Numbered from the stretch's first letter, positions 3,224 through 63,340 are shown. The stretch: 64,000 nt of DNA from a virus (IMGVR_UViG_3300043388_000012:1-64000), one strand, 5' to 3'. Notes: generated by a model not told the origin, from the sequence alone. Numbers and translations are program-made.

Positions 3224-3889
3224 ATGATGCGACGACGACGTGTTTCGGGCGGAGCCGCCGAGGCTTCTGCTCCGAGTAACCTCGAGGATACACCTTCGCC
3301 AGTAGCTGCAGACGAAGGCGCGGAGCGTTGGGCAGGCGATCCCGAAGAGCCTCCAACACCCGTAGCTGCAGTAAGCGAGCCGGTCGAGCCAGCTCGTAAG
3401 GATCGATTCTCCATGCCGTGGGGATTGGTCATCACCGATGTGTTGAGCATGGACGTGCATAAGACGTTCAAGCGGTTGACTGACGATCTCTCGTTAGGCG
3501 ATGGCGCTACCGAGTACGGATCGGTGCTGCATGCGCTCGATAGGAGCTCGCGAAGTCTGTACGAGGCGACTTGTTTGGCTCGTAAGGCACAGATCGAAGA
3601 CGAGCGGTTTTCAGCGGATCTAGGAGTCAGGCTCGAAGTGCTGCGATCGGCGGCGATTGCATCGCTCGAAGCAGATAAGGCGGCGGGGAGAAAATCGAAG
3701 TCACCAACGCTCGAAGACATCAAGGACAGGATGCTCGCGAGCTGGCCGGACGAAGTTAGGTCTATCAACGCGCGCAAGGCAGAGATGCACGGAGCCTTCC
3801 GCGCGATCGAAGCGTTAGTTGTAGCTTGGAACAAGCGTTGTGATGCGTTGCGCGTGATGGCTCAAGGGCATCGGAACACCGGAGCCTAA
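3224..3889 (+). CDS. Coiled-coil protein, putative UvsY-like recombination mediator
   Basis: Helical C-terminus TLEDIKDRMLASWPDE...AIEALVVAWNKRCDAL resembles the UvsY pattern; lies between polB and the SSB-like/recA genes. Confidence 0.45.
   Translation: MMRRRRVSGGAAEASAPSNLEDTPSPVAADEGAERWAGDPEEPPTPVAAVSEPVEPARKDRFSMPWGLVITDVLSMDVHKTFKRLTDDLSLGDGATEYGSVLHALDRSSRSLYEATCLARKAQIEDERFSADLGVRLEVLRSAAIASLEADKAAGRKSKSPTLEDIKDRMLASWPDEVRSINARKAEMHGAFRAIEALVVAWNKRCDALRVMAQGHRNTGA
3275..3292. promoter_or_regulatory. Motif A site
   Basis: AGTAACCTCGAGGATACA (17/18 match), within ORF 3224. Confidence 0.8.
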
Positions 3890-3910
3890 CGGGCTTCTCA
3901 AGGAGGATGG

Positions 3911-5389
3911 ATGACATCTGCAGGCGGCCTAGGAATAGCGAGCTTCATCAAGCATACAAGCGAAGGCGGAGGCGGGAAGGATTGGCTCAAGGCATGGCAC
4001 AAGGGAGGTAAGGGAGAGGTCACGATCTGGCTGCATACTCGGGCGCCGATCGTTCCAACACTCACTCATTCGTTCATGCTCGAAGACGAGTTCGAGGATA
4101 AAGAGACTGGGCGAATGAAGCCGGTCCTGCGTTATCCGCGGTTTGTTAGTCCGGATGGCGAGAGCGTTGCTCGCAACCAGTACTTCAGAAACGACGACGC
4201 GCACAAGTCGCTGCAGGTTCCTCCCGATCGCGATCCGTTCTTGTTGCTGCGAGAGTGGCTGCGGCTCGCTGATCATCTCCCGCTCGATGCGCCGATTTTC
4301 AAATGGAATGATGAGAAGAACAGGAAGGTCATCGTTTGGGAGCGAGCCGAGATCTCGTTGCTTGTGAAGCGTGGCAAGCAGAACTTCAACCACTCGCTCG
4401 ATGTGAAAGTCGAATACGTGTACGTCGCAGTCGATAACGACAGCGTCAGTTCAGGGCCCGTGCTGATGCGCGAGGGCAAGTTGCTCAGTCAGAAGATCGT
4501 CGAAGTCATCAAGCAGCAGCAGAAGATGCACGGCGAAGAAGAAGGCGATCCGATGCAGCACCCCTATGCATTTCTGCTAACGGCAGAAGATGCATCGAGC
4601 CCGATGAATGTTTACAAGGCGTTCAAAAACGAGAAGGCGGTCTTCACAGATGAAGTGTGGGCTGCGATCTCGGGCGATGACTTCCCTGACCCGCTACCGT
4701 ATGGGCAACCGTCAGAGGGTGATTCGGAGAAGATCCGCGACGCGTTCGAGAAGGCAGCACAGGTCGACCTCCCGCTCGATCAAATCTTCTCGGAAGACCC
4801 GGAGGTTCGTCGTCAGCTACTCAAGCCAACGGGAATGAATAGGCCTCCTGCAAGGGCTTCCAAGGCGGCGCAAACGCGAGCCGCGCAGAACCCCCCGCCT
4901 CCAACTCGCGACGCCAAGCCGCAGCCAGCTACAGCTGCGGCGAAGCCGAATGGAGCGGGAGCAAGTGCGGCGACGACTGCTAGTAAGCCAGCGCCAACGG
5001 CTACCGGGAGCCCGCAACTGCGGCGGAAGAAAGTAGAGCCAGCTCCAGAGCCAGAGCCCGAAGTTGAGAAGGTACCGTGCGAAGACTGTGGCCATCAGAT
5101 GCTCGTCACAGACACGAAGTGTGCTGGTTGCGGCGCGGAGTATGAGCCGATCGTCGATGACACTCCGCCTCCGCAGCCTGAGCCAGCGAAGCCTGCAGGT
5201 GCAAAGCCGGGCACGAAGCCGAAGCCATCTAGCACCGTAGCATCTGCTGCGAAACCAGCTGCAGCTGCTACGGCTGCGAGCGCTCCGACGTCGGCTGATC
5301 TGAATTGCTGGTCGTGCGGCGTTGAGCTCAACGGGGCAACTCAATGCCCGTCGTGCCACGTTGATCAAGGCGACGATCTCCCGTTCTGA
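3911..5389 (+). CDS. Putative single-stranded DNA-binding protein with Pro/Ala linkers and zinc ribbons
   Basis: Ends in GDDLPF (SSB-type acidic tail); CEDC..CAGC and CWSC..CPSC pairs; directly upstream of recA. Confidence 0.55.
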   Translation: MTSAGGLGIASFIKHTSEGGGGKDWLKAWHKGGKGEVTIWLHTRAPIVPTLTHSFMLEDEFEDKETGRMKPVLRYPRFVSPDGESVARNQYFRNDDAHKSLQVPPDRDPFLLLREWLRLADHLPLDAPIFKWNDEKNRKVIVWERAEISLLVKRGKQNFNHSLDVKVEYVYVAVDNDSVSSGPVLMREGKLLSQKIVEVIKQQQKMHGEEEGDPMQHPYAFLLTAEDASSPMNVYKAFKNEKAVFTDEVWAAISGDDFPDPLPYGQPSEGDSEKIRDAFEKAAQVDLPLDQIFSEDPEVRRQLLKPTGMNRPPARASKAAQTRAAQNPPPPTRDAKPQPATAAAKPNGAGASAATTASKPAPTATGSPQLRRKKVEPAPEPEPEVEKVPCEDCGHQMLVTDTKCAGCGAEYEPIVDDTPPPQPEPAKPAGAKPGTKPKPSSTVASAAKPAAAATAASAPTSADLNCWSCGVELNGATQCPSCHVDQGDDLPF

Positions 5390-5403
5390 GAAGGCTTTGA
5401 ACC

Positions 5404-6570
5404 ATGGCTAAGCTACGCACGAAGAAGCCAGCAGCTGACCCCGATCCGATTGAGTCGGACTCGGCTCCGCCCCCTAAGCGCGCGGTCATACCGTTACCGA
5501 AGGGATGGGCGCGAGCAGAGGAAGCGCTTGATCGCATTGAGTCAGTGTCTACGATCTTCCCTGACTTCAATCGTGCGACTCGAGTTGGCGGTCTGCCTGT
5601 GAATCGTATGCACACGGTTCACGGGCAGACACACGGGGGAAAGACTGCGTTCGTGATCGGTCTGATGAAGTCGTTTCTCGATGGCGATCATGTCGCTGGC
5701 TACATCGATGCAGAGCACTCCACTCCGCAGGAGTTCGCCGAAGAGTTGTTAGGCGAGTTGAAGTTGCGCGACCGGTTCTTCGGCAAACGACCAGACACGT
5801 ATGAAGACACGGTCGATGCCGTCAACGACTTCTTGAAGATGATGGCGGAGGTGCGGAAGGGGAGCCCGCAAACGAAGTCGATCGTCGTAGTCGACTCGAT
5901 CAACAAGCTCACTCCATCTCGTGAGCTGGCGAACGTGATGCGCGAAGGCGGCAAGGAAGTTAGCAAAGGCCATGCAGGCCGGTATCGCGCGGCCGTGAAC
6001 AAGTCATGGCTCGACCATCTCTCGCCGCGACTCAAGGCTGCAGGTTGCGCCATGGTGTTCATCGCACAGGAGCGTGAAGGGCAGGAGGATCAACCATGGG
6101 CGGCCGATGGCGGAGTCGAGATCAAGGGCGGTCAGTCGCTCTCGTTTGATTCATCGTTGCTGATACGCGTCTCGAAGGCTCATCCGATGCGAGACCCATC
6201 GACAGCTTCGAAGGAGTGGCCAAAGGGGCAAGTCATCGGGTTCGAGCATCGTGTCAGGATCTATAAGTCGAAAGTGTCACACATGGACGGCGACAGGTCT
6301 GACTGTCTGTTCCATTTCTCGAACGGGAAGCAGACACCAGCTGGGTTCGACATACAGCGCGATGCGCTGCACGTCGGGAAGATGCTCGGGCTAGTCGCTG
6401 TCAGCGGCGCTTGGCTCAGTTACCGCAAGCATCGTTGGCAAGGCGAGATGAAGGCGGCGCAGTGGCTCTCTGACCATCAGGAAGTGACGATCGACATGCT
6501 TGCGCAGATCGAGTCGAAGCTCGCCGCGGAGCGCGCGGAGCATGCTGCATCACGAAAGAGGGCTCTGTGA
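5404..6570 (+). CDS. recA: RecA/UvsX-like recombinase
   Basis: Walker A GQTHGGKT, YIDAEH, Walker B IVVVDSI, FIAQER, GGQSLSFDSSLLIRV. Confidence 0.93.
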   Translation: MAKLRTKKPAADPDPIESDSAPPPKRAVIPLPKGWARAEEALDRIESVSTIFPDFNRATRVGGLPVNRMHTVHGQTHGGKTAFVIGLMKSFLDGDHVAGYIDAEHSTPQEFAEELLGELKLRDRFFGKRPDTYEDTVDAVNDFLKMMAEVRKGSPQTKSIVVVDSINKLTPSRELANVMREGGKEVSKGHAGRYRAAVNKSWLDHLSPRLKAAGCAMVFIAQEREGQEDQPWAADGGVEIKGGQSLSFDSSLLIRVSKAHPMRDPSTASKEWPKGQVIGFEHRVRIYKSKVSHMDGDRSDCLFHFSNGKQTPAGFDIQRDALHVGKMLGLVAVSGAWLSYRKHRWQGEMKAAQWLSDHQEVTIDMLAQIESKLAAERAEHAASRKRAL

Positions 6571-7373
6571 AGCTGCTCGTTTTCAGTGACATTCACTTAG
6601 ACGCTGTGACGGCCGGCAAGCCCCGTAGAGCCGAAGTGGTCGAGTTCCTGCGACTCGTACGAGACATAGCGATTGCAGAGGAGGTCGAGCTAGTCATCTT
6701 CAGCGGCGATGCTCACGACTCCGGCTGGCTGCTCGATCCGCTGTATTCGGCGGAGCTGATCGAAGCGTTGTTCTTGTTTCACACACCGGTCATCGCGATC
6801 CCGGGCAACCATGATGTGGTCGACACCTCGGAGCTGTTTCACGATGCGCCAATCAGCACGCTGACGCCTGTGCGCGCCGCATACAGGTTCCTCAAGGCGC
6901 ACAGGCATCCTGTGCATGTGATGGAGCGGCCGGAGCTTGTGAGAGTCGGCAGAAGCACTACCAAGGATTGGGCGGTGCTCGCCCTGCCCTACGTGTCACG
7001 TGCACATCGGGCAATGAACGATCGATGGCTCGATGAAGCGTTCGAGTCGGCACAGAAACACGTCGACGAAGGGTATGGGTTGATCGTGGTCGGGCACTTG
7101 GTTGTGCCAGGTGCTGCGATGGGCAGCGAATCGCACGAGATGGCGAAGGGGCAAGATCAACTCTTCCCGGTCGAGCGCGTAGCGGCTCTCAAGCCGAAGG
7201 TGGTGATCAATGGGCACTACCACGCGCGGCAGGTCGTGACAGTGATCGTATCGGGCGACTCGCCAGTGACTCCCGGGCTCGAGATCGTGATTCCAGGCTC
7301 TCCGCTACGCTTCACGTTCGGTGAGGCGGATGAGATCGCGAAGGGCGTAACCATCATGGAGCTCTCGAAATGA
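6567..7373 (+). CDS. sbcD: Mre11/SbcD-like metallophosphoesterase nuclease
   Basis: SDIH, SGDAHD, PGNHD, GHL, GHYH and PGSPLRFTFGE motifs. Confidence 0.92.
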   Translation: MKLLVFSDIHLDAVTAGKPRRAEVVEFLRLVRDIAIAEEVELVIFSGDAHDSGWLLDPLYSAELIEALFLFHTPVIAIPGNHDVVDTSELFHDAPISTLTPVRAAYRFLKAHRHPVHVMERPELVRVGRSTTKDWAVLALPYVSRAHRAMNDRWLDEAFESAQKHVDEGYGLIVVGHLVVPGAAMGSESHEMAKGQDQLFPVERVAALKPKVVINGHYHARQVVTVIVSGDSPVTPGLEIVIPGSPLRFTFGEADEIAKGVTIMELSK

Positions 7374-7810
7374 AACATCGCCAGAAGCAGCAGAAGCTAG
7401 CGAGCTCCGGCAAGTTCGTCGACGTAGTCTCCGGCACTCGCGTCGAGTTCGTCGACGTTGCACAGGCAGGCATGCGCGTGTTCTCCAAGGGCATCGATGA
7501 CGAAGGCATCGGCAAGGCGGTGTCGGGTTGCTACGTCAAGTACGCCCCGATCGTGAAGTCGTCGGAGCGTGCATCGCTAGACACGAAGCTCGTTCGCGAG
7601 CGCTTACTAGCAGCAGGGGCAACAGCGGTTGTTGTTGTGCCGGTTGTAGTACCTGACTCAACCGCCGATATGAAGCGGCGTGGTCCGCGAATGGTGAGCG
7701 CAGAGGTTCACCTGAGAGAGTGGTTCGAAGGCGTGAAGGCGGTCTCTCCCAAGCTACTCGAAGCCGCGATCGCAGAGGCAGTCACAACTATCGGTGAGGC
7801 TGGCCTGTGA
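7370..7810 (+). CDS. Hypothetical protein, possibly the detached C-terminal part of Mre11/SbcD
   Basis: Overlaps sbcD and sbcC by 4 nt on each side; the upstream sbcD is short (268 aa). Confidence 0.5.
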   Translation: MKHRQKQQKLASSGKFVDVVSGTRVEFVDVAQAGMRVFSKGIDDEGIGKAVSGCYVKYAPIVKSSERASLDTKLVRERLLAAGATAVVVVPVVVPDSTADMKRRGPRMVSAEVHLREWFEGVKAVSPKLLEAAIAEAVTTIGEAGL

Positions 7811-9756
7811 AAATCGACACACTCACGCTGTCTGGTTGGATGCCGTTCGCAGGAGAGTTCTTTCTCGTGCTACCGGATGGTCCGATCGCTGTGGTCGGCT
7901 CGCATAGCGGTGACACACGGAGGAGCAATCGTGCAGGGAAGACGTCTCTGCTCGAAGCGATTACCTGGTGTCTATTCGGTACGCATCGCAAACGTTTGGA
8001 TGACGATGTGATCAACCGGAGCGTGCAGGAGTGTTCTGTCACGGTAGTGATGGGAGACGTGCGAGTGGAGCGTTCGCGTAAGCGAGGCAGCAGCACGAAG
8101 CTCGTTGTCGGTATGTACGATCTGATCAAAGGAGTGATGGTCGAGTACACAGGCGAGGCAGCACAGAAGCAACTCGAGATCGACCTAGGGATCGGCGTAG
8201 ACGACTATCTCGCTACTCGTTGCTTTCGTCAGGGAGAGGTCGAATCGATCGTGTCGAAGTCGGCAGGCGAGCGGCTCACGCTCGTGAGTGAGTGGCTGCA
8301 ACAAGGCAAGTGGTTCGACGCGAAGAAGCTGCAGGCGCTCAAAACAAACGCAGCTGAAACGAGGCTCGCTGAGAGGCGCGCATCCGTGCAGACGGCGGCG
8401 ACTTTCGTGCTACCCGATGCACAGCGGCACGAGATGGGCGAGCGCTTGAACGCGCTCAAGCTGCAGATGGGCGGGCTCGATATCGAGCTCAAGGCGGTCT
8501 CGAATCAGCTAGCGGAAGCGGCAGGTGCGAAGGTTCAGCTGAACTCGCATCGAGACATCAGGGGGCTTCGGCATCAAGCGGCAGACCTCCGCAAGCGGCT
8601 CTCCAATCGCGGCGAAGTAGACACTCGCAGAGACGAAACGGCGGAGCAGGAAGCTCTCGCTCGCACGTCCATGTCCAACGCGTTTGCGGCGATCAAGGAG
8701 CTGGAGTCGGTTCGTAAGATTGGGTTCGATGGAGTCTGCCCGATCACATGCGAGGAGTGTCCCGCGGCTCAACATGTGACCGATGTTGTGCAAACGGCTT
8801 CAGCGTTGTTCGTTGAGCGGTCACGCTCACACGAAGAGCAACGCAGAGTGTGGGAGCAACTTCGCTCCGAGCACGATGTAGCCAAGCGAGAGTCGACGGA
8901 GCTCGATAGGCTCGCAGTGCAGTATCAAACCGTGGTCGAGCGCGGGAAGAAACTCGCGTCTGAGATCACGATGACAGAGGCGGAAGCCGAAGCCGCATCT
9001 GCGAGTGAAGCACTGAAGGCGGAGATGGATGCCTTACGCCAAAGCTTCGGGGAGATGCTGCAGGAAGCGTCGAAGATCGAAAGCGCGTTGCTCAACGCTA
9101 CGCGTGATGTCGAGCGTTATGCAGTACTGTGCATGGAGGTCGAGCAGGCGGAGAAAGCGGCGATCTCAAGTCGGCTAGCACTGCGCGCGATCTCGAGCGT
9201 GCCAGCGCGCATCGCGGCTCAACAGCTAGGCGAGCTGGAGCAGGAAGCGAACTCCTTGCTCGAAGGCACGGGCGTGAGTCTGCGCTTCTCATGGGCACGA
9301 GAGCTCGCTGACAAGGCTCCAATCTGCGAAGAGTGCGGGTTCGTCTATCCATCCAAGCGCGGCGATACATGCCCGACGTGCAAGGCGGCGCGCGGGAAGA
9401 AGCTAGCTCAAGAGTTGGAGCTGCTTTGCGACGATGGTTCAGGCGCAGAGGAAGATGTTCGGTTCAACAGCGGCGGCACACGGGCGATCGTTGGCTCGTC
9501 TATCCGGCTCGCAGCGTCAGCGATGCTCAGTCGGTTGCGTTCGTCGACAGTGGCATGGGCGATCGTCGATGAACCGTTCGGCTCGCTCGATGCAGAGAAC
9601 CGGGAGCAGTTGGCACGCACGTTCGCGGGCATGCTGAACAGTGTGGGTCTCGAGCAGGCGTTAGTTGTGTCACATGATCCGGCACTGCTCGCCGCTCTGC
9701 CAAGCAGGATCGTGGTCGACAAGGATGGCAGCAACTCAACCGTGAGGGTCGAATGA
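7807..9756 (+). CDS. sbcC: Rad50/SbcC-like SMC ATPase
   Basis: Walker A NRAGKTSLLEAI, coiled coil, central CPITC hook-like motif, signature NSGG, Walker B/D-loop IVDEPFGSLD, H-loop VSHD. Confidence 0.93.
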   Translation: MKIDTLTLSGWMPFAGEFFLVLPDGPIAVVGSHSGDTRRSNRAGKTSLLEAITWCLFGTHRKRLDDDVINRSVQECSVTVVMGDVRVERSRKRGSSTKLVVGMYDLIKGVMVEYTGEAAQKQLEIDLGIGVDDYLATRCFRQGEVESIVSKSAGERLTLVSEWLQQGKWFDAKKLQALKTNAAETRLAERRASVQTAATFVLPDAQRHEMGERLNALKLQMGGLDIELKAVSNQLAEAAGAKVQLNSHRDIRGLRHQAADLRKRLSNRGEVDTRRDETAEQEALARTSMSNAFAAIKELESVRKIGFDGVCPITCEECPAAQHVTDVVQTASALFVERSRSHEEQRRVWEQLRSEHDVAKRESTELDRLAVQYQTVVERGKKLASEITMTEAEAEAASASEALKAEMDALRQSFGEMLQEASKIESALLNATRDVERYAVLCMEVEQAEKAAISSRLALRAISSVPARIAAQQLGELEQEANSLLEGTGVSLRFSWARELADKAPICEECGFVYPSKRGDTCPTCKAARGKKLAQELELLCDDGSGAEEDVRFNSGGTRAIVGSSIRLAASAMLSRLRSSTVAWAIVDEPFGSLDAENREQLARTFAGMLNSVGLEQALVVSHDPALLAALPSRIVVDKDGSNSTVRVE

Positions 9757-10064
9757 AGACGTTAGTCGATTGGCTCTTCTCGTTGTCCCTCATGTTGTTT
9801 CTGCTTTGGCTGATGCCATGGCCCGAGAGTGTTCAGAGGCTCTACAACGCGCTCGTGAAGCGGCTCGAACGCGCGATAAGGGGGAAGTGATGGACGTCAG
9901 AGATGAAGCCTTGATTCGCATCAACGAGATCGTCACGCGTTGGGAGCAGATCCGGCAGCTTGATTATGGCTCTCCTGTCGTAGCGGCGACCTATCACCTC
10001 GCTGCGAATGAGATTCGAGAAGTACTTGAGGAAGTCGCAAGCGCTCCGGGAAGGGAGTCGGACG

Positions 10065-10808
10065 ATGACGCTGAAGACTGAGAGCATCTTCTTTCCAAAC
10101 GTGTTCGGGCTCGACTTGTCGCTCCGAGCTCCCGGGCTAGCTGTAGTCAGCGGCAATCCGCGCAACCATGTTGGCGATGGCCTCGAGGTCGACTCCGCGT
10201 TGATTCGTATCGGCGAAGATGTTCGTGGCCCGCAGAGGCTGTCGGTTGTGTCACATGCCGTGTGGGATTGGATGAAGAGCCGAGGCGCGAAGGCTGGCTC
10301 GCTCGTTGTTCAAGAGGGGTACGGATTCTCTTCGCAGATGGCGCACTCGACCGGCGAGCTTGGCGGCTGTGTGCGGAGAGATCTGTACGAGAATGGCTGC
10401 AACCTGGTTGTGATTCCCCCGTCGACGCTCAAGCGTTGGGTTACGGGCAAGGGCAACGATGACAAGAACGTCGTCATCAAGAAGGCGTTTCAGCGTTGGG
10501 GATTCGACGTCGACGAAGACAATCAGTGCGACGCGTTCACTTGCGCGATGCTCGGGCTAGTCGACGTTAGTGATCGCTACCACTGGACTCAGGTCGAGCT
10601 GGACATACTTACAAAGAAGGTCGAGCGCTATGCGGGACAGGGTCAAGCAAGTTGGCTCGGCGGAAGTCCGAGTGGGAAGGTACCAACTCGCACTCGCAAA
10701 CGTAAAACAGGCGGAGGTGTTGATCTCGGATCCTCCGTACTCAAGCAAGACGTGCAAGGGCCACGACGCAGGCGACGACATGATTCGGGACGGAGTCCCG
10801 CGGCGTAA
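10065..10808 (+). CDS. ruvC: RuvC-like Holliday junction resolvase
   Basis: FGLDLSLRAPGLA, VVQEGY, PSTLKRWVTGKGN, DNQCDAF; ATG 10065 is in frame with the listed ORF. Confidence 0.82.
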   Translation: MTLKTESIFFPNVFGLDLSLRAPGLAVVSGNPRNHVGDGLEVDSALIRIGEDVRGPQRLSVVSHAVWDWMKSRGAKAGSLVVQEGYGFSSQMAHSTGELGGCVRRDLYENGCNLVVIPPSTLKRWVTGKGNDDKNVVIKKAFQRWGFDVDEDNQCDAFTCAMLGLVDVSDRYHWTQVELDILTKKVERYAGQGQASWLGGSPSGKVPTRTRKRKTGGGVDLGSSVLKQDVQGPRRRRRHDSGRSPAA

Positions 10809-11424
10809 GATGGGATATGCGCCATGGCATGAATCCGACGTTGTCGAGTTCGTCGATTCATGGGCTCCGCGCATCCGAGGCTGGTTCGTTGTCTTTACTG
10901 ACCATGTGCTAGCTCCGTTCTATACGCGCGAGTTAGAGGCGAGCGGGAGGCTGGTGTTTCCGCCGATCCCATACGTTGAGCGCGGGATGACAGTACGGCG
11001 ACAGGGCGACGGGCATTCGAGCTGGACAACTTGGGTCATCGCAGCACGACCACGTAACCGAGAGTTCGTGAAGTGGGGCACGCTGCAGGGTGCGTACATC
11101 CTGCCTCCGGGGTTCAAAGAGAAGCGGGTGATCACGGGTCAGAAGACGCTCTGGGTTATGAGCGAGGTCATCAAGGATCACAGTCGGCCAGGTGACTTGA
11201 TCGTTGATCCATGCTGCGGAGCGGGCAGCACGTTAGTTGCGGCTGTAAGGTTGGGTCGAGACGCGTTAGGCGCGGATGGAGATGCGAATGCTGTCGATAT
11301 CGTCAGGGAGAGGCTATCAGATGAACGAACTAGGCATGCGAGAGGTCGAGACGTTCGCCAAGGAGTGGGCGGCGGCAGGCTCGCACGTGGTTCAACACTG
11401 GCAACTGTGGGAGGAAAAGGCTAG
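10630..11424 (+). CDS. Amino (N6A/N4C) DNA methyltransferase, beta-class motif order
   Basis: LISDPPY near the N-terminus; DLIVDPCCGAGSTLVAAVRLGR SAM-binding motif near the C-terminus. Confidence 0.85.
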   Translation: MRDRVKQVGSAEVRVGRYQLALANVKQAEVLISDPPYSSKTCKGHDAGDDMIRDGVPRRKMGYAPWHESDVVEFVDSWAPRIRGWFVVFTDHVLAPFYTRELEASGRLVFPPIPYVERGMTVRRQGDGHSSWTTWVIAARPRNREFVKWGTLQGAYILPPGFKEKRVITGQKTLWVMSEVIKDHSRPGDLIVDPCCGAGSTLVAAVRLGRDALGADGDANAVDIVRERLSDERTRHARGRDVRQGVGGGRLARGSTLATVGGKG

Positions 11425-12590
11425 CGCGGTGTTCGGGTTCATGTACGTGAAGAAAGCCGCCCCGGAGAGCATGCATGCCTTGATGTTCGTAGTGTGCGGC
11501 GTGTGCTTCGGCGGCATTGGTTCGGTCAAGGGCGTTATCCGCAACGCGGCTCCGAGCACGCTAGCTGCAGTCTCGAGCGCGGTCGGGCATCTGCCTGAGT
11601 TCCGAGTGCTGCTCGAAGCAGAGTCGCGGTTCCGCAGCTGTCAGTTGGTTGCTGATTGGATGATCGCATTGCTCCCCGATGGCAAGGTCGCTGTGCGTTC
11701 GGAGCTTCGCAGTTCAGGGGAGACAGAGCATTGACTACCTATCCCGAGCATCCCGAACCAGCACTCACTGCGCATGAGATCCTTGCGCAGCACACAACCA
11801 ATGTCAGTGCGATCACGGCGAAGGTGATGAGCAACGCGATCGTCGAATACAACAACCTGCGAGCGCTGGTCGATGATCTCGCCAGAGAGCGAACGCGGGA
11901 GCTGCTTCGAAGACACGAACCAGCCGAGCCCGAGATCAAGGTGTCTGCCGCTCTCGAGTCTGTGACCGAAGCGCTCGCGACGTTGGCGGATGTGATCGCG
12001 AAGGCGAAGGAGTTCGTACGCCGTGCGGCAGAACAGAACCGGCTAGGAGTTGTCCCGGATGCCGAAGCCGCGCAACTGCTCATGCACGGCAGGCTGCGTG
12101 AAGTCGTTGGTCGGAGCACTTCAGATGCGGGGCACGTCATGACGGGAGCCGATGCGTACGCGAGACAGGCGGATAGCCAAGCCGAGCCAGGGAAGAACGG
12201 TGCTCCTAGATAGGTACGGAGTGATAGCCGTATTCGCGGCTGCGGCTTGGACCGATCAAGCGCGGTTACGGCTTTGGGCGAAGACGGTCGGCGCGGCAGT
12301 CGTAGCCTCGCAGGAGCTCCAGACAGTCGTGCTCCTGACGGATGACCCGTCTGAAGCGAACAACGTCTTAGCGAGGCAGCTCCGGTGCTCGAACGTTGTG
12401 TGCGCCATCGTCAGGACTCCCGGCACAATGCGGTCAACGATAGAGCTAGGGCGGGCTAGGCTCCGACGTGATTTGGCTATGGCGCAACTCGCAGATGCGA
12501 TCTTCGACTTCGGCGAGATGTCAGGCGGGAGGCGCCGATTTCCTGACAAGCAGACCTTTGTGATTCTAGAAGGGCAGGATCGATCTGACT

Positions 12591-12608
12591 TGTAACCTCG
12601 AGGATACA
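12591..12608. promoter_or_regulatory. Motif A site
   Basis: TGTAACCTCGAGGATACA, overlaps the stop at 12595. Confidence 0.85.
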
Positions 12609-15475: not shown

Positions 15476-18400
15476 GTGGCTGGCTTAGGGGCACGTGGGT
15501 CAGGTGTGTCGAGTGGCTGTGCGAGAGCGTCTAGCAGCGCAGCGATCGCAGCGTCGATGAAGTCTCTCCCGGATGGCGGCACTCGCCTGCGCGCTCGCAA
15601 CCGGACTTCAGGATCGGCGAGCACTATGCGTGTGACAGCCCGAGCTAGCCCGGTATCGGTCGAAACCCAGTGAGCCGCTTGCCTGTCTAGAGCAGGTTGC
15701 CATTTGCATGATGAGAGAGTCGGAGATGCAGCTTTCGACTTCTTTTTACGTGGTTTTTGAGTGGTCATTGGGCCTCAAAGCTTCTTCAGCATGTCAGTGC
15801 TGAAAGCGTGTATTTGAGGCGCGAACTGGTCGATCTGAGTCTGCATCGCTGCAGCTTCCCGCGTCTTGTCATTGGCCAGCACTACGAGCCGTTGAGCTTC
15901 GCTCGCATGCTGCTTGGCTTCGTCCCGGAGGGCCGTTTGCTTGCGTACGAGCTGGTCGAGCAACTGCGCTCCCATCTCTAGCCATGCCGTTAGGTCAGAG
16001 ATCGGCTTCGGCGTTGGCTCCAACGTTGGCTCTGGCTTGGTAGCTATCAAGACAGTTTCAGGCTGTCTCGGAGGCGGTCGTATGCCTGGCTGATCCTGGC
16101 TGTACGCTGGCGTGAGCTCATCAACAGCTCGCTCGATGCGATTCCATTGCACGGCCTTCTCACTCTTGTCGTCGAAGAACACGACGCGTACACCTGAACT
16201 CAAGCGCTCAACGATGCGTGCTTTACGCGGCTTCGAGAAGCGAGCGTTGGTTCCAAGTATCTCGTGAACCATCACGTCATCGCCTACGCCAAGCGACCGG
16301 GCTTCTTGCTTGGGAGTGAGTGCGGGAGGTGTCGGGGGCTCGATGGGAGGAGGCAATGACTGCTTGGCTTCCGAAGCCGAAGTCGTCGGCTCGATCGAAA
16401 TGTAACCTTGAGGATACACGCCTGAGTTTGACGTTGACGCAATCGGAGCAGGGGGAGCCGATGACTCAGCCATCAGCGGCGAAGTCGGCAGGCGTTGTTG
16501 CTCTGGCTGCTTCTTGGGAAGCTGTACGAGCTTTTGCTCTGGCTGCGACGGCGGCACGAGCTTCACGTTCGCGAACGCTTGCGGCACTGCTCGCAGGGCT
16601 TCCGATGTAGCGTTGCCGTTGACCGGAGCTGGAGCTTTGGGCGCTTGAACAGGCGGCTTCGGCACCTTCTTCAGCCTCGTGTATGGGATCTTCTGCTTGT
16701 CGCTACGGAGCGAAGTGTCTTTCTCCGTGAACTCAACAAGGGCAAATGCACGCTCCTTCTTCAGGATGATGGCGCGGCGTACAGATGCGGTTGAGTTGCG
16801 CTCGTTGTCTCCGTACTTGCGTTTCTCGACTAGCACTTCTTCCTTGAGAGCAAAGTCTGCAGACGGGTCCTGAAAATCAGCTTGAGCCATGTTGTGTCCT
16901 TGTTGTGTGAGGAGTCCTCGGATGCCGGTCACGATTTGCAGTCAAGTGGGTCGGAGAATGGCTTCTTCAATGTCGTTGAGTATCTGCCGCACTTGAGTCA
17001 GGCCGATTTGAAGCGCGAGCTTCTTCAGCGCCCCAACATGGTCAACGCAGCGCTCGTTGAGCATTGACGGAACGTTGAACATCGACTCGAGATCGTTCGC
17101 AGTGGACGTGAGGATCTCTTGCTCGCCGTTGGGCGAGATGACAGCTGCATGTCCGTTTGAATGCCCATTGCGTTTACGGAGCTTCGGGCCCTGTGTCGGA
17201 GCGATGTACGTACCGTTAGCCTTGAGGGCAATGCGGATGCTGCTCCGGATCTTCGAGACCTGCTTCTGTGTGAGAGTGAGACCGATCGCTTTGGCTTTGG
17301 CGACGGTCTCGGCGTTTGAAAGTGTCTCGGGTAGGCCAGCAACAAAGGCCTTCTTCGTGATCGGTTTGCGGGGCATAGAGTGTGTCCTTTGTTAGTTGTC
17401 GGTTGGGTTGATGGGAAGCGGTAGAGCTCCGGCGCTGTCTGCTGAAAGGCCGACCCATGCAGCCGGCCCTATGATTTTGTAGTAGCCATGCGGCACGACG
17501 AACCGCGTCATTGAGACTGGCTCGCCGTATCCTTGCGGCGCGTAGACGGCGATCGTCAGACCGGTGTTGGTTATGTCTAGAATGATGCCGAGCAACGCAC
17601 CGAACGGCCCTGCGTTGGGGTTGAGTTGGGCAACGTCTCCGATGCGTGGAAGCGGAGGGATGGTCATGAGTCGATCCGGTTCTTCGACTCTTCGGCTACC
17701 AGCCAGCGAAGGTGACGCTGAAGCATGCCGATCTGGTCTTCGCGGCTAGCACTCGATGAGTGCGTTACCCATCCGGGCCCGTTGTTGAAGATGAGCAGAA
17801 AGAAGCCTTCTGTCTTGTAGAGCCGCATTGCGACCTGTCTCGAGATCTCCCGAATCTTGTTCTCGAGTAGCTCACGATCGGCAATCGGCTCTCGACCTGC
17901 CTTCTCTGCATCTGTCATCCGGTCGAGCCGTGCTTTGGTCTCTTCGCTCGGTTCAGCGAGCCACTGAATGATCTGCTTGACGCGAGCAGTGAAGCCGTGC
18001 GGGTTGCGTTGATTCTCTGCCGTCGTTGACATGTACGCGGCAAGCGCTGACAGGATCATGATGTCGTCATCGAGGTCGATCGAGTAGTCGAGTTGCCACT
18101 TCACGAGATGCTCACAGAGCGCGTTAGCCGTCTTCACTTTCTCGGTGAAGCCATCGGGCGCGATACCGAGTATCGCGCTCGTTAGGTCGTTTAGGTCCCG
18201 CTCATAGGTAGCGTCGTCTGACTTGTCATCTGTCATTTGGGTGCGTCCTTTGGTCGCAGGCCAAGTACGGAGCAGAGCACTTCGACGTCTTCGCGGTACA
18301 TCGTTAGTTCGCCCGAGAGAACGCCTCGAATCCAGATGAACACACGCTCGTGTGCTCCCGCTGTCTTCGTTCGAATGCTGCTCACGATGCGCAGATAGGG

Positions 18401-21002: not shown

Positions 21003-21020
21003 TGTATCCTCGAGGTTACA
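21003..21020. promoter_or_regulatory. Motif A site (reverse orientation)
   Basis: TGTATCCTCGAGGTTACA, 20 bp after the serine recombinase stop. Confidence 0.85.
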
Positions 21021-28938: not shown

Positions 28939-31725
28939 ATGCGTTACCGAGTGAAATGGGCGGCGACGATCGCGGCATCCACGCTCGCAGCGTCAACGAC
29001 GCTAGCTAGTCCGGGTCATGATGTTCTAGCCAGTGAGGCGGCGAGCGAGAATGTAACCTCGAGGATACAAAAACCGCGGCTCCGAGTGCGTATCGTTCCG
29101 CCTCCTGTGCGGCCGCAGGAGCCGAGCAAGGAACCGAAGCCCCCGTTGCGCCTTGAGACGCCTCCCGGGTTTCCTGAGCCAGCTCCGGAGCCGGATGACG
29201 TCGAAGACGACGGGGCAACCGATCAAGAGATTCAGATGGCTCTGCTGCACAAGGCGGCGGAGGCGAAGGCCAAGTATCACGAGCTCTGCCGCAACGACAT
29301 AGACGCCTTCTGTGAGTACGTACTGAAAGACGTCGACGGCAAGGCGATCGAGCAGAACGCCTTTCACGAGCAGCTTCAGCGCGATCTGACAGTACACAGG
29401 CAGATCGTTGTCATCAGCCATCCTGAGAGCGGGAAGGCGCTGACGCTCGATACAGAGATTCCGACGCCAGACGGCTGGCGGACGATGGGATCGCTGAAGT
29501 GCGGCGATCGTGTGTTCGGAGGCGATGGCAAGCCGTGCTTAGTTACGTTTGCGACGCCTGTGCAGCTGGGTCGACGCGTGTTCGAAGTTGAGTTCGAAGA
29601 TGGCTCGATTCTCAAGGCGGATGCCGATCATCAATGGCATGTTCGCAAGCGGCAGGCGTTCGGCACTCGAGTTGTCACAACGCTCGACATGCAGCGCAAG
29701 CTCACGGAGTCAGACGGTCATTTTGTGTGGTCGGTACCGTGCACTGGAGCAGTGCAGTATGAGCGACACAGGTTGCTTGTTGACCCGTATGTGTTGGGAG
29801 CATGGCTCGGCGACGGCACTGCGAGCGATGCTTCGTTGACGTTCGGCGAGGCGGATAGCTTCGTTTGGGAAGAGTGCGTTGCACGAGTCGGCGGCAGAGC
29901 TCCGCGCGTGGATAGGCACAACGGGCATGTGAAGACCGGGACTCTCGGGTCAGGGTGGGGAGCGATCCGCGGTAGGTTGCGTCGCTTGCGAGTGCTGGAT
30001 GACAAGCATATCCCGACCAACTATCTGACGGCTTCTGTGTACGATCGACGGGAGCTGCTAGCCGGCCTGCTCGATACTGACGGGAGCGTGAGTCGAGCAG
30101 CCGGAGGAAGCTCACGAGTCGAGCTCACGCTCTGCAACGGCAGGCTCGCGAGTGACTCACTCGAGTTGATTCGGTCGCTGGGTTTCCGCGCAACGATGAA
30201 GGAGTCCGACTCCTGTTTGAACGGGCGCGTAGTCGGTCGGCGTTGGCGGATCTGTTTCACAGCGCGTGAGCCGGTGTTCCGGTTGCCACGGAAGCTCGCG
30301 AAGCAGCAGCTAGGCGGCTCGACTCGTACGAGTTGGAAGCATGTCGTTGCGATTCGCGAGATCGAGTCGGTCCCGGTTCGCTGCATTGCGGTCGATAGTG
30401 AGAACCGAACGTATCTCGCTGGCCGGGCGTACACGGTCACGCACAACACCTCTCAGATAGCCGTTGGGCGCGTGTTGTTTGAGCTAGGGCGCAACCCGAA
30501 CTTGCGCGTGATGCTGCTCTACAACGCGGAAGAAGCCGCGGTCAACACGCTCTCGACGATCAAGAAGTACATCGAAGACAGCGAAGAGCTGCATGCGGTC
30601 TTCCCCAATCTCAGACGCGGGCAGATTTGGAAAGATGACGCGATCGTTGTTCAGCGCTCTGCCTACGATCGTAACCCGTCGATCGTTGCAGTCGGTTACA
30701 ACAGCCGACGCATCGGCGGTTCGCGCGTCGACTTCCTAGTCATCGATGACTTGCTCGACCAGACAGTCACGGCGAGCGAGATACAGCGCCGCAAGCTGTC
30801 GAGCTGGGTAAAGAGCACGGTCCTAACGCGTATCACTGCGCACGCAATGATCGCGTTTCTCACGAACGCTTGGCATCCGCGCGACCTCGCACACGAGTCG
30901 GTCAAGGATCGCGGCTGGCATCTCATCAAGCGGCCGATCCGTAATCCGGATGGCGCGATCTCCTGGCATCTGTGGACTGAAGAGCGGCTCAAGCTCAAGC
31001 GCAAGGATCTCGGAGCTCTCGAGTACGCACGTTCGTTCGAGTGCGATCCGCGCGATGACTCTTCGCGTGTGTTCCGGCCTGAACACGTCGAGTATGCGCA
31101 GAAGAAGCGCGGAGCCGGTTACGGCTTCTTGCACTCGCTCGATATCATGCCCGATCGCTCGCTCGTTGTGACCGGCATCGACTTGGCGGCTGGCGACGAC
31201 ACGAAGAAGATCGGTGCTCGCACTGCGATCGTCAGCGTGTTCTTCCATCCCAATCAGGATCGGCAGGTCGTGCGCATCCGCTCCGGTCGTTGGCGCGCGC
31301 GGCAGATTTTGGATGAAGTTGCGGCGGTCGGTCATCTCTTCCCGCGCAACCATTGGATCGTGGTCGAGAACAACGGTGTTCAGCGCTGGATTCTCGACCT
31401 GGCTAACGAGCATGACATGGACGTCGGCGTTGCTCTCGTGCCGTTCCGTACAGGCCGCAACAAGAGTGATCCTCGCTTCGGCGTGGCATCGATGGCGGCC
31501 GAGTACGAGGCTCGCCGTTGGATTTTGCCGGATGCCTGCGAGACCGAAGACGAGCAGAACGAAGTCGAGAGCGTCGTATCGCAGATGATCGATTATGTGC
31601 CGGAAGCGCATACGGGCGATGCGCTAATGGCGAAGTGGTTCGCGCGCGAAGTCGGCAGGAAGATCTTCATGCGGTTCTTCGGACCCGGAGCTACTGGCGG
31701 TTCCATCGTGCGCGCGATCGGGTAG
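28939..31725 (+). CDS. terL: Terminase large subunit with intein
   Basis: Walker A PESGK|T split by the intein, Walker B FLVIDD, nuclease TGIDLA, VENNG, HTGDALMA; ATG 28939 overlaps the preceding TGA. Confidence 0.92.
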   Translation: MRYRVKWAATIAASTLAASTTLASPGHDVLASEAASENVTSRIQKPRLRVRIVPPPVRPQEPSKEPKPPLRLETPPGFPEPAPEPDDVEDDGATDQEIQMALLHKAAEAKAKYHELCRNDIDAFCEYVLKDVDGKAIEQNAFHEQLQRDLTVHRQIVVISHPESGKALTLDTEIPTPDGWRTMGSLKCGDRVFGGDGKPCLVTFATPVQLGRRVFEVEFEDGSILKADADHQWHVRKRQAFGTRVVTTLDMQRKLTESDGHFVWSVPCTGAVQYERHRLLVDPYVLGAWLGDGTASDASLTFGEADSFVWEECVARVGGRAPRVDRHNGHVKTGTLGSGWGAIRGRLRRLRVLDDKHIPTNYLTASVYDRRELLAGLLDTDGSVSRAAGGSSRVELTLCNGRLASDSLELIRSLGFRATMKESDSCLNGRVVGRRWRICFTAREPVFRLPRKLAKQQLGGSTRTSWKHVVAIREIESVPVRCIAVDSENRTYLAGRAYTVTHNTSQIAVGRVLFELGRNPNLRVMLLYNAEEAAVNTLSTIKKYIEDSEELHAVFPNLRRGQIWKDDAIVVQRSAYDRNPSIVAVGYNSRRIGGSRVDFLVIDDLLDQTVTASEIQRRKLSSWVKSTVLTRITAHAMIAFLTNAWHPRDLAHESVKDRGWHLIKRPIRNPDGAISWHLWTEERLKLKRKDLGALEYARSFECDPRDDSSRVFRPEHVEYAQKKRGAGYGFLHSLDIMPDRSLVVTGIDLAAGDDTKKIGARTAIVSVFFHPNQDRQVVRIRSGRWRARQILDEVAAVGHLFPRNHWIVVENNGVQRWILDLANEHDMDVGVALVPFRTGRNKSDPRFGVASMAAEYEARRWILPDACETEDEQNEVESVVSQMIDYVPEAHTGDALMAKWFAREVGRKIFMRFFGPGATGGSIVRAIG
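29052..29069. promoter_or_regulatory. Motif A site
   Basis: TGTAACCTCGAGGATACA, in the 5' part of terL. Confidence 0.85.
29437..30447 (+). mobile_element. Class-3 intein with LAGLIDADG homing endonuclease (337 aa)
   Basis: Starts ALTLDT, ends THN before T; block B HQW, block F VRCIAV, block G T; YVLGAWLGDG and LLAGLLDTDG. Confidence 0.92.
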
Positions 31726-45316: not shown

Positions 45317-45334
45317 TGTATCCTCAAGGTTACA
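45317..45334. promoter_or_regulatory. Motif A site (reverse orientation)
   Basis: TGTATCCTCAAGGTTACA flanked by TTT/AAA, intergenic. Confidence 0.85.
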
Positions 45335-46738: not shown

Positions 46739-47089
46739 ATGAACCGGACGGACGATCGAAGGTGGGGCAGAAGCAAGTTGCTGCGGCATGGGCATCTGCT
46801 CCGCGCGTTACGTGAAGATGCCGGACTGTCTCAAGCGCGGCTCTGTCAGCGGATCGGAATGAGTCCAGCACAGCTCTCGGAAGTCGAGCGCGGGATACAA
46901 CCGCTCTCCCTCCGACGTGCAAACCAGATCGCCAAGGTGCTCGGCAGTTCGTTCGCAGAAGTTGTGCAAGCTGTGCTTCAGGATCGCGTCGAAGATGCCG
47001 GGTTCAGCGAGCTGCAGGTGTCTGTCGTTCCGATCGCGGTTACGGCGACTGTCAACGGACATTCGCACGAAGCTGACAAGCTCCCATAG
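46739..47089 (+). CDS. XRE/Cro-CI HTH regulator (repressor candidate)
   Basis: LRALREDAGLSQARLCQRIGMSPAQLSEVERGIQPLSLRRANQIAKVLG. Confidence 0.87.
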   Translation: MNRTDDRRWGRSKLLRHGHLLRALREDAGLSQARLCQRIGMSPAQLSEVERGIQPLSLRRANQIAKVLGSSFAEVVQAVLQDRVEDAGFSELQVSVVPIAVTATVNGHSHEADKLP

Positions 47090-54145: not shown

Positions 54146-54372
54146 TGGATGCGATCACATGGACGCTACAGGCAGGTACTCCGCACTACGCGTCTAGCTG
54201 CGGCCGCTACGTTGCTCTGTATGTGCGCACGAGCCGGACAGGCTTCGCGATCTACCGAGTGTTCCGGGCAAGCCTGCCGTATGCACAGCGGAAAGAACGC
54301 AACGCGCTCTCGGTCGGCGGCTTGCCAGCTCTCGCCTATTGGGAGCGCAAGGAGCTCCCAGAAGGAATGTAA
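54145..54372 (+). CDS. Hypothetical gene coupled to 53690-54145
   Basis: TGATG overlap; its stop TAA lies inside motif A at 54368. Confidence 0.6.
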   Translation: MDAITWTLQAGTPHYASSCGRYVALYVRTSRTGFAIYRVFRASLPYAQRKERNALSVGGLPALAYWERKELPEGM

Positions 54373-54385
54373 CCTCGAGGATACA
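54368..54385. promoter_or_regulatory. Motif A site
   Basis: TGTAACCTCGAGGATACA, overlaps the stop at 54372. Confidence 0.85.
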
Positions 54386-57057: not shown

Positions 57058-57066
57058 AGTTACTGC

Positions 57067-57621: not shown

Positions 57622-58329
57622 GTGGAGACAGCAACCCGATCGAAGCCGAAGCCGCGCACGAGACTGAAGCAGAGCTCGCCAAAATCGAGACCGCCGATCG
57701 AGCTGAAGTCGAGACCGCCGAAGCAGGCGAAGTCGAGACCGCCAAAAGCCGATCGGAGTGTATCCTCGAGGTTACACGTGCAGATGGTTCCGCTGAGTCA
57801 GCTCCTAGAGTGGCCAGGAAACCCTAAAGAGCACGACTTGGAGACTCTGGGGGAGAGTTTCGAGAGGTTCGGCTACGTCGAGCCTATCGTGTATGACGAA
57901 GGCAGTAAGCGGATCGTTGCTGGCCACGGTAGGCGCGAAAAGTTGCTGGCATGGAAGCAGAGCGGGAAAGCTCCCCCTGCTCGTGTCGTTGTGCGTAATG
58001 GCGAGTGGTATGTGCCTGTGCTGCGCGGAGTCTCGTTTCCAAACGCACACGAAGCCGAAGCGTACCTACTCACCAGCAACCAAGGTGTGATCCGAGGGGG
58101 GTACAACGCAACCGCGCTCGCAGAGATGCTCTCCAGACATGTGGATGATTCGAACGGTATCGGTTGGAGCTCCGACGAGATCAGCGACCTGATAGGCAAA
58201 GCGCAGAAGGCCGCTCAAACGTCTTACAACGAGTCGATCGCTCCGGATGAACCGGAAGCATACGAGCAACCGAAGCCCGTTACGCATACCTGTCAGAACT
58301 GCGGAGCGACGGTTGCCTGCAATCAATAG
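57622..58329 (+). CDS. ParB-N (ParB/Srx) domain protein; start may be 57784
   Basis: VPLSQLLEWPGNPKEH...FGYVEPIVYD...IVAGHGR. Confidence 0.8.
   Translation: METATRSKPKPRTRLKQSSPKSRPPIELKSRPPKQAKSRPPKADRSVSSRLHVQMVPLSQLLEWPGNPKEHDLETLGESFERFGYVEPIVYDEGSKRIVAGHGRREKLLAWKQSGKAPPARVVVRNGEWYVPVLRGVSFPNAHEAEAYLLTSNQGVIRGGYNATALAEMLSRHVDDSNGIGWSSDEISDLIGKAQKAAQTSYNESIAPDEPEAYEQPKPVTHTCQNCGATVACNQ
57685..57743 (+). repeat. TCGAGACCGCC x3 with a 24-nt period
   Basis: Copies at 57685, 57709 and 57733. Confidence 0.85.
57759..57776. promoter_or_regulatory. Motif A site (reverse orientation)
   Basis: TGTATCCTCGAGGTTACA, 8 nt before the ParB-domain ATG 57784. Confidence 0.85.
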
Positions 58330-62773: not shown

Positions 62774-63024
62774 AGCGCCTAGTGCAAGTTGATCCAGAGA
62801 CGTACAAACCCGCGGGAGTGGTCTGCACGTTCGAGCTTGTCGGAGACAAGGTCGAAGTAGTCCCTGCGGATGGTCTCGACCGATGGCGGAACGTCGCAGA
62901 GCTCGTGTTGGGGAGCGAGATCCTGACTCCGAGCGACGGCAAGGCGTATTACGATGCTCTCGGATCGATTCGCGGCTCCTATTTTTTCGTCGAAGAAGTT
63001 CCGGAGACCGAAGCAACCAAGTAG
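62770..63024 (+). CDS. Small acidic protein
   Basis: ATGA-coupled to the MuF-kinase gene. Confidence 0.6.
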   Translation: MKRLVQVDPETYKPAGVVCTFELVGDKVEVVPADGLDRWRNVAELVLGSEILTPSDGKAYYDALGSIRGSYFFVEEVPETEATK

Positions 63025-63036
63025 TTTCTCCCTGCT

Positions 63037-63327
63037 ATGGCAGGCGAACTACTCGAGTTGATCACGAGTCACGATCCGTCGCTCAAGCAGCGCGTGTTGA
63101 CACGCGTGCAGCACGTTATCGCTGACTCGTTTAGAGCAGACAAGTCACGCCGCACAACCTCCGAGGTAGTGCGGCGGTTCAAGATCCTCGAGACCTTGAT
63201 GCGAGAGCTCCGGCATGACTACGGATGGGCGTTCGAACGGATTCTCGACGCTATGCCTGTAGCGCTCCGATGCAAGCTCGACGGCATCCCGTGGGCGCCC
63301 GATTTGAAGCGCAACTCTTGGGTGTAA
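63037..63327 (+). CDS. Hypothetical protein
   Basis: Its stop codon lies inside motif A at 63323. Confidence 0.6.
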   Translation: MAGELLELITSHDPSLKQRVLTRVQHVIADSFRADKSRRTTSEVVRRFKILETLMRELRHDYGWAFERILDAMPVALRCKLDGIPWAPDLKRNSWV

Positions 63328-63340
63328 CCTCGAGGATACA
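63323..63340. promoter_or_regulatory. Motif A site
   Basis: TGTAACCTCGAGGATACA, overlaps the stop at 63327. Confidence 0.85.

Follow-up and report, generated by a model that had tools for sequence, protein, structure and literature searches.

A dispersed 18-bp near-palindrome kept at gene-block borders in related uncultured phages

Motif A is an 18-bp near-palindrome which recurs across IMGVR_UViG_3300043388_000012:1-64000, a stretch of 64,000 nucleotides of phage DNA (hereafter the window). Its closest published analogue is the 17-bp dyad of the Cluster O mycobacteriophages (e.g., Corndog; TGTTCGG-NNN-CCGAACA, 34 copies), whose function was left unknown in 2015 and which was predicted to bind a dimeric protein with no part in the initiation of transcription (PMC4351075). 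In both cases a short TGT...ACA palindrome is distributed genome-wide, mostly between genes or near gene starts, with no tie to promoters and no meaningful orientation, and the Cluster O phages too carry proteins with a ParB-like domain. Motif A differs in its length of 18 bp without a free spacer, its invariant central CG and its lower copy number (10–21 per ~100 kb). Its sequence (hereafter its word) varies by lineage at constant positions and is stably asymmetric in one lineage, and neither the phage family nor the probable host phylum is related to that of Cluster O.

The stoperators of the Cluster A mycobacteriophages, which bind repressors of the L5 gp71 type, are present as tens of sites over early and late genes, in short intergenic gaps, and co-evolve with the repressor (PMC6550527, PMC9283540). 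Motif A resembles them in its dispersal, its short intergenic gaps and a set of sites that evolves together between related phages. However, stoperators are 13 bp long, asymmetric, read by a monomer and oriented with transcription (PMC4351075), whereas Motif A is a dyad or near-dyad found in both orientations, including within plus-strand genes. The Cluster A repressor is known, while for Motif A no reader was assigned by comparison of protein families, and the phage is uncultured.

KorB, a ParB-family CTP clamp, binds 12 OB operators on plasmid RK2 (PMC11790492). The likeness to Motif A lies in a dispersed palindrome at variable distance from promoters, and in a ParB-fold protein encoded in the same genome with a site before its own gene. 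However, KorB has a canonical helix-turn-helix (HTH) and a ParA partner (IncC), whereas the source phage encodes neither a ParA of the kind that characterizes partition systems nor a recognisable HTH in its ParB-like protein, a family which carries a C-terminal zinc knuckle or a methyltransferase instead.

The Ogr-dependent late promoters of phage P2 have the consensus TGT-N12-ACA (PMC3931495). The outer consensus and the 18-bp span are identical to those of Motif A, and a −35-like hexamer can be seen by eye ~10 nt past the site in some relatives, but no Ogr/Delta zinc-finger gene was found, the inner 12 bases of Motif A are fixed within each phage, and its sites do not lie at a fixed distance upstream of a promoter. 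P2 has four Ogr sites, at about −55, whereas the phages described here have 10–21 sites, some of them only 7–16 nt from a start codon.

We propose, with a probability of about 0.45, that Motif A is the docking site of a predicted phage DNA-binding protein, used genome-wide at the borders of gene blocks and probably acting on transcription.

The repeat and its words across lineages

The window comprises bases 1–64000 of an 82,209 bp IMG/VR record, estimated to be 75% complete; the source phage, with a genome of ~110 kb, is called G000 below. A pattern search found eight exact matches in the window (12591, 16401, 21003, 29052, 45317, 54368, 57759 and 63323) and a ninth at 3275 with one mismatch (AGT instead of TGT), and no further match in the window with up to three mismatches. 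Shuffles which preserve dinucleotides predict 0.00 exact matches and 0.03 with up to three mismatches. A tenth copy lies outside the window, at 81180 of the same record. The sequence-only reading, which had described nine near-palindromes of 18 bp in both orientations, was thus accurate on this point. G000 therefore carries one short palindrome in numbers far above chance (10 copies vs 0 expected), as its relatives do (6–21 copies).

Once oriented, all ten copies read TGTAACC-T[C/T]GA-GGATACA, that is, the half-sites TGTAACC and TGTATCC. Every copy has A at position 5 and A at position 14 and is therefore asymmetric, and CTTGAG replaces the central CTCGAG in three copies. Six copies are in the forward orientation (3275, 12591, 16401, 29052, 54368 and 63323) and four are in reverse (21003, 45317, 57759 and 81180). 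Alignment of the copies shows that the flanking sequences are unrelated, as had been claimed, and no isolated half-site with its preceding TGT occurs outside the full sites. A nucleotide search against a phage database gave no match to cultured phages.

An exact-pattern scan of IMG/VR gave the relative G001, and portal, capsid and ParB-like protein queries added further genomes. An 18-bp word of one build is carried by at least 11 contigs of related phages: TGT (in a single lineage AGT), an interior of 12 bases centred on CG, and ACA, the inner letters being specific to the lineage:

G001, complete, 109.5 kb: TGTAACC-TCGA-GGTTACA, 14 copies (12 exact and 2 near)
G006 and G008: TGTGGCC-CCGG-GGCCACA, 13 and 10 copies, respectively
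G009, 93% complete: TGTCYCC-TCGA-GGRGACA, 17 copies
G012, partial contig: AGTCTCC-CCGG-GGAGACT, 6 copies
G013, complete: TGTTCAC-CCGG-GTGAACA, 21 copies, all perfect
L086, L090 and L091, partial contigs: further word variants, 1–2 copies each
L088 and L089, partial contigs: the asymmetric word of G000, 3 and 4 copies, respectively, and zero symmetric copies

The palindrome of G001 reaches 24 bp. G000 and G001 can be aligned over only ~29 kb, with 65–76% identity. No comparable word is present in G010 and G011, more distant relatives which have only structural genes in common with the others. The relatives are probably phages of Myxococcota with genomes of ~100–113 kb; this host phylum is suggested by the occurrence of capsid relatives on contigs of Myxococcales and Kofleriaceae metagenome-assembled genomes (MAGs). 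A 110,983-bp contig (JGI sample 3300050046) encodes a ParB-like protein 84% identical to that of G000, and is therefore probably its closest relative. In a Myxococcota-phylum MAG (G211), three identical copies of TGTTTCC-CCGG-GGAAACA are found on contigs C49, C106 and C535, which probably derive from a further member of the family that has a word of its own.

Within each lineage the change is common to all copies. In the portal tree, G000, L088, L089 and G001 form one clade (support 97/96) in which L089 is sister to G001 (94/95). The asymmetric word is thus paraphyletic to G001, which indicates that asymmetry is the older state in the clade and that all 14 copies of G001 turned symmetric after its split from L089. 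In the three asymmetric genomes (G000, L088 and L089), 17 of 17 copies are heterogeneous between their halves, which would occur with P = 8e-6 if A and T were free at this position. The orientation of the site upstream of the ParB-like gene differs in L089 from that in G000 and L088. Flips do therefore happen at orthologous sites, and still there is not a single symmetric copy. The only explanation that we see for this stable asymmetry is a reader which treats the two halves differently, and we infer such a reader from the sequences. Avoidance of restriction was considered as a cause and rejected: neither AAC-N6-GTT (21 occurrences vs 10.5 expected) nor ACC-N4-GGT (11 vs 8.4) is depleted in G000, and avoidance of CYCGRG was not seen.

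Positions, local context and form of the sites

The open reading frames (ORFs) of seven motif-bearing genomes (G000, G001, G006, G008, G009, G012 and G013) were clustered by BLAST across genomes, and gene ends were scored for sites. A site is present at the 3' end of the gene for the family-B polymerase (PolB), or at the 5' end of the next gene, in six of the seven genomes, under five word classes. It lies at the junction before the large terminase in G000, G001, G009 and G013, and nearby in G006 and G008. The start of an SF2 helicase gene and the ends of the genes of the primase, the 12152 family and the 63037 family each have a site in three to four genomes, and in four genomes the site overlaps the stop codon of the 12152-family gene. 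The starts of the ParB-like and tape-measure genes have a site in the G000/G001/G006 clade. Before the ParB-like gene, the site stands 7–19 nt upstream in G000, G001, G006, G008, L088, L089 and L090; in G006 and G008 the gene is inverted, and the site is still at its 5' end.

The way in which the sites are accommodated is also informative. Where genes leave no room between them, as past PolB in G000, G012 and G013, codons of a disordered linker in the following gene spell out the site, in reading frames that differ between the genomes. In G006, variant halves (TGTAG and TGTAA) serve as the stops of both PolB and the 12152 homologue. At these places the DNA word is thus selected for in its own right. 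The sites are real and under strong selection, and their positions are conserved across lineages. Absence of conservation in related phages would have spoken against a binding system; instead, the relatives keep the sites at the same gene borders, while the words change in step within each lineage. Orthologous positions under differing words, and sites which lie within stops and codons rather than being inserted, also do not fit miniature inverted-repeat transposable elements (MITEs) or repetitive extragenic palindromic (REP) elements, in agreement with the earlier view that Motif A is not a transposon remnant.

The ten copies of G000 are placed as follows:

3275..3292, + strand: one mismatch; 58 nt past the PolB stop (3217), in codons 18–23 (disordered N-terminal linker) of the UvsY-like gene 3224-3889
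12591..12608, + strand: the TAA at 12593-12595 is the stop of gene 12152-12595; 50 nt upstream of the Lar-like gene 12659-12874
16401..16418, + strand: centre CTTGAG; within the minus-strand ORF 15775-16932, in a Pro/Ser-rich linker, read G-V-Y-P-Q-G-Y
21003..21020, − strand: intergenic; the serine recombinase gene 20240-20983 ends 20 nt before it, and 21202 lies 182 nt after it
29052..29069, + strand: between the small-terminase-like gene 27927-28718 and the intein-containing large terminase gene 29086-31725, 16–37 nt before the terminase start
45317..45334, − strand: centre CTCAAG; intergenic; 223 nt upstream of the two-gene block 45557-46564 and the XRE regulator 46739-47089
54368..54385, + strand: early cassette region; next come a GC hairpin and, at 54439, a Motif B promoter
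57759..57776, − strand: 7 nt before the ParB-like gene, which starts with an ATG at 57784
63323..63340, + strand: its TAA is the stop of gene 63037-63327; 70 nt upstream of 63410
81180, reverse: 13 nt before the tape-measure gene, outside the window

Counterparts of the site at 12591 are found at 102599 in G001, 93917 in G006 and 14049 in G008, that of 21003 at 900 in G001, those of 63323 at 41555 in G001, 61308 in G012 and 14286 in L088, and those of 45317, upstream of the XRE block, at 18614 in G001, 1342 in L089 and 38329 in G012. The ORF 15775-16932 has no homologue in the relatives, and a protein atlas search with gene 12152-12595 gave nothing usable.

Most copies lie between genes. Three copies (3275, 16401 and 29052) had been placed inside genes: this holds for the first two, both in codons of disordered, low-complexity linkers, but the third is most likely upstream of the terminase start, judging from the in-frame starts at 29086 and 29107 and from homology to relatives, which begins further in. 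Likewise, of the three copies said to lie over stop codons, those at 12591 and 63323 do so, the TAA of TGTAA being the stop, while that at 54368 does so only on condition that a small unannotated ORF is a genuine gene. When all sites of the seven genomes were tested for codon usage, few lay in a read-through frame with a coding signal on both sides, and an estimated ~85–90% did not. A site may be as close as 7 nt or as far as 223 nt from the next start, the flanks have no conserved base, and sites are found sometimes just before and sometimes just after promoter-like sequences, in agreement with the earlier statement that they are not tied to −35/−10 boxes. The sites are thus mostly intergenic or at gene ends, without a fixed link to promoters. 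Their spacing is more even than random (coefficient of variation of 0.57–0.70 vs ~0.9; single P values of 0.007–0.12, and ~0.001 when five P values are combined by Fisher's method).

The form of the sites also bears on whether they act as DNA or as hairpins in nucleic acid, i.e., as RNA or DNA hairpins that serve as terminators without a U-tract, mRNA stabilisers or processing sites. Many sites lie 0–6 nt past a stop codon, where terminators sit, and the relatives' forms fold with −12 to −18 kcal/mol; but the G000 form, which is ancestral for its clade, reaches only −3.4 to −3.8 kcal/mol as an RNA hairpin (z-score of ~−2). The half-sites vary independently, and the hairpin strength is not conserved. 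At position 5 in G009, nine sites have T/T, two have C/C and six are mixed (~7 mixed sites are expected under independence), and in G006 a single half differs in 7 of 13 sites. The stem is therefore not kept by compensatory changes as it is in terminators or structured RNA, no T-run follows the sites that could give a U-tract, the sites occur in both orientations relative to transcription, and a stem would not need an identical sequence at all copies. The non-compensatory variants, the weak fold and the lack of a T-run and of conserved flanks fit two independently read half-sites on duplex DNA rather than a stem, and we give the hairpin explanation little chance of being right.

Several other features were noticed in the course of this comparison. 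About 17 copies of a second palindrome, Motif B (TCCCG-N4-CGGGA), lie between 47108 and 57043, many of them in the spacer between a TTGCA-type −35 and the −10, with an ATG within a few bases; they are concentrated in two diverging arrays of small genes whose transcripts look leaderless. With 17 such sites in G000 and 0–6 in the relatives, Motif B is largely specific to G000; it is a system separate from Motif A. The large terminase gene (29086-31725 in G000) of both G000 and G006 is interrupted by a LAGLIDADG intein, which the G001 gene lacks; the UvrD-like helicase of G001 has a weak intein match. The region 437-11424 is a recombination and replication block in the style of T4, which encodes, in this order, the family-B polymerase, the UvsY-like protein, a 492-aa protein of unknown function, RecA/UvsX-like, SbcD-like and SbcC/Rad50-like proteins, and a protein whose C-terminus resembles a methyltransferase. 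Past the orthologous sites at 63323 in G000 and 41555 in G001 (63341-63409 and 41573-41640, respectively), these genomes, which are only ~70% identical, match letter for letter in two blocks of 12 nt, CTTATTGCGATC and AGCGTCTACTTT; the blocks may mark a conserved late promoter whose spacer would be unusually long. In G013, GCTACC[AT]T occurs at eight minus-strand sites between 10814 and 107360, followed in most cases by an ATG 7–11 nt later, and a Motif A-type site lies within 65 nt, on either side, of 3 of the 8 copies; this set looks like leaderless promoters. Finally, an unrelated 8.6-kb element (L016, IMGVR_UViG_3300021400_004078) carries 13 different TGT-N12-ACA palindromes, mostly flanked by TTT/AAA, in two clusters (943-1448 and 6473-7386). 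Each cluster is next to a Cro/C1-type HTH gene, and one lies between the genes of a large serine integrase and an XRE protein; the clusters look like arrays of operators which differ from one another in their inner sequence.

Candidate readers and competing explanations

From the distribution of Motif A we infer that a protein binds it, that this protein is of phage origin and that it affects transcription. The sequence-only reading had proposed a second genome-wide binding system besides the promoter-embedded Motif B; the orthologous positions and the concerted change uphold this core. Among the functions which it listed, the recombinase target and the classical parS site are disfavoured, while a transcription roadblock or regulator and a role in DNA organisation are both still candidates. 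Two gene products in the window are candidate readers:

46739..47089, + strand: XRE/Cro-type HTH protein of 116 aa (Pfam HTH_31 at 2e-14, HTH_3 at 1e-13)
57784..58329, + strand: 181-aa ParB-like protein, its C-terminus a zinc knuckle (PHROG 620 at 3e-21; structural model with a predicted local distance difference test (pLDDT) score of 90)

In the XRE protein, the recognition helix has AQLS in the three phages of the TGTAACC type, whereas G006 and G008 have CSIS and G012 has AHLS, but this contrast between word classes is confounded with phylogeny. The two-gene block that precedes the XRE gene has a site upstream of it in G000, G001, L089 and G012; in G006 and G008 the site lies beside it. Other gene products were considered and set aside. 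The protein encoded at 49107-49811 (minus strand) is made up of a sigma-70 region 4, a CxxC-15-CxxC zinc ribbon and, last, a basic tail; it is kept in all seven genomes, the ribbon being missing in G013 and L091, and may act on the host RNA polymerase or on −35 recognition, but its canonical 4.2 recognition helix, ITRERVRQIE, is invariant across all word classes. No credible match to Ogr/Delta (PF04606) exists in five genomes, the best hit (E = 0.005) being below the cut-off and containing an internal stop. As for the UvsY-like protein (3224-3889), a site is found at the 5' end of its gene in most genomes, but the only lead to a role as reader is a feature-based look-alike cluster in which 15% of the members carry UvsY.

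Several observations weigh against a phage DNA-binding protein that acts on transcription. No candidate protein could be tied to the sites when families were compared across the word classes. The XRE protein is not a universal reader, as a profile search (E up to 10) found no member of its family in G009 or G013. The HTH helix of the small-terminase-like protein (27927-28718) does not co-vary with the word, and this protein was also rejected. The ParB-like protein has no recognisable HTH: the corresponding stretch is poorly conserved and is modelled as one continuous helix. In G009 it is cut to its N-domain, yet this genome has 17 sites. Several sites, e.g., that before the tape-measure gene, lie 7–16 nt before a start in the middle of a putative single late operon, an odd place for a regulator of transcription, and the stable asymmetry is not what a simple homodimer predicts.

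The ParB-like protein also gives rise to a different explanation, in which the sites are parS-like loading sites from which this CTPase-fold protein spreads or slides on the phage DNA, and might recruit adjacent modification enzymes that mark the DNA as self. Its gene is present in seven of seven motif-bearing genomes and absent from the motif-free G010 and G011, whose contigs cover the portal region. Its model matches the ParB/Noc/KorB fold with Z ~10 over residues 1–151, beyond the N-domain, although Pfam ParB_N stays below significance and a PDB sequence search with its profile gave no meaningful match. The site upstream of its gene in seven genomes, kept after gene inversion, and the even spread of the sites would also suit such a role. 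The outer ends of parS are TGT, as here, and the Noc site has a CCCGGG centre, as in some of the words described above. KorB (PMC11790492) and BisD (PMC12409273) are ParB-family clamps known to regulate from dispersed sites. The protein is fused to a DPPY-type DNA methyltransferase in G006 (27233-28570) and G008, and in the relatives L086, L089, L090 and L091 its gene comes first, followed by those for a C5 DNA methylase, a uracil-DNA glycosylase (UDG), an Asn-synthase-like amidotransferase and an S-adenosylmethionine (SAM) methyltransferase; judging from this gene order, it looks like a DNA-modification module with the ParB-fold protein as its first gene. On the other side stand the poorly conserved putative recognition helix and the truncated protein of G009 with its good sites, the absence of a site next to the gene in G009, G012 and G013, and the Microbacterium phage Margaery, which has a homologue 37% identical and no dispersed palindrome in the 50 kb examined. 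No ParA was found either, PF13614 giving only weak P-loop matches in a DnaB-like helicase, and this, with the non-significant ParB_N match, disfavours the classical parS partition site that had been suggested earlier. On balance we consider ParB loading unlikely, though second in rank among the explanations, and the more specific proposal, that the 18-mers let the ParB-fold protein recognise its own phage DNA, cover the genome from evenly placed sites and bring in DNA-modifying enzymes, slightly less likely again.

The sites could also be read by the packaging machinery, by a recombinase or by the host. Distributed pac-like sites recognised by the small-terminase-like protein would fit the site found at or near the junction of its gene with that of the large terminase in every lineage (three sites lie in and around the gene in G013), as well as the fold of the protein, a confident N-terminal three-helix bundle followed by long helices as in small terminases. 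The assemblies close on themselves with overlaps of 120–127 bp, which fits permuted headful genomes, and packaging specificity is known to diverge between related phages. However, G000 and G001 share a word but not the putative recognition helix, which is no more different in G006, where the word is another; the protein has no PHROG match and no sequence or fold match in the PDB, and we know of no phage with 10–20 pac sites, so that we regard this explanation as very improbable. Crossover sites of a phage serine or tyrosine recombinase seem scarcely probable at all: a site does follow the gene of the serine recombinase by 20 nt in both G000 and G001 and precedes it by ~190 nt in G006, the CG at the centre never varies, and some gene-order differences have a site at the junction, but tblastn finds no homologue of the serine recombinase (E <1e-5) in G009 or G013, the genomes with the most sites (17 and 21, respectively). 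This disfavours the recombinase target proposed earlier and led us to reject the enzyme as the reader. In addition, conservation runs through the centre of a site of only 18 bp, unlike in hix- or res-type sites, and the genome would be scrambled if recombination took place at ten or more sites in essential regions. Lastly, the sites may bind a host protein, the words reflecting different hosts. The GC content of the phages spans 57–68%, so that their hosts probably differ, and TGT...ACA ends are common in sites of the CRP family. But no copy-rich genome was found among 401 sampled genomes of Myxococcota, the phylum of the MAG with a related capsid gene, where the generic pattern occurs once in 17 genomes and three times in one, and the close relatives L089 and G001 differ in step at every copy. 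Together these two observations make a phage-encoded reader the simpler reading, and leave the host protein a very small chance.

Proposed mode of action and significance

A phage DNA-binding protein docked at the borders of gene blocks could work as follows. The protein would read the 18 bp as two 9-bp halves around the central CG, and in the lineage of G000 the halves TGTAACC and TGTATCC would be read differently. About 10–20 sites per genome would be kept at block borders (after PolB, and before the large terminase, the SF2 helicase, the ParB-like protein, the tape-measure protein and the XRE block), that is, at the edges of the replication, packaging and tail modules. Sites and reader would co-evolve, which would give each lineage its own word. 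The bound protein would most likely affect transcription throughout the genome, serving as a roadblock, an insulator or a long-range regulator, in the manner of stoperators or KorB operators, rather than in the way of a classical operator within a promoter.

What is new in this series is the combination of the same borders with a different word in each lineage, together with one switch from an asymmetric to a symmetric word at every copy. It points to a trans-acting reader with evolving specificity, and provides contrasts with which the reader can be sought. If the 18-mers serve to load a ParB-fold protein on self DNA, they would be the first target site, and indicate a role, for a widespread class of phage ParB-methylase proteins, and the asymmetric word would mean that the halves are read by non-equivalent subunits; more generally, with a ParB-like reader the array would account for a common type of phage protein that has no known function. 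With a global regulator as its reader, it would represent a genome-wide layer of control in large uncultured phages.

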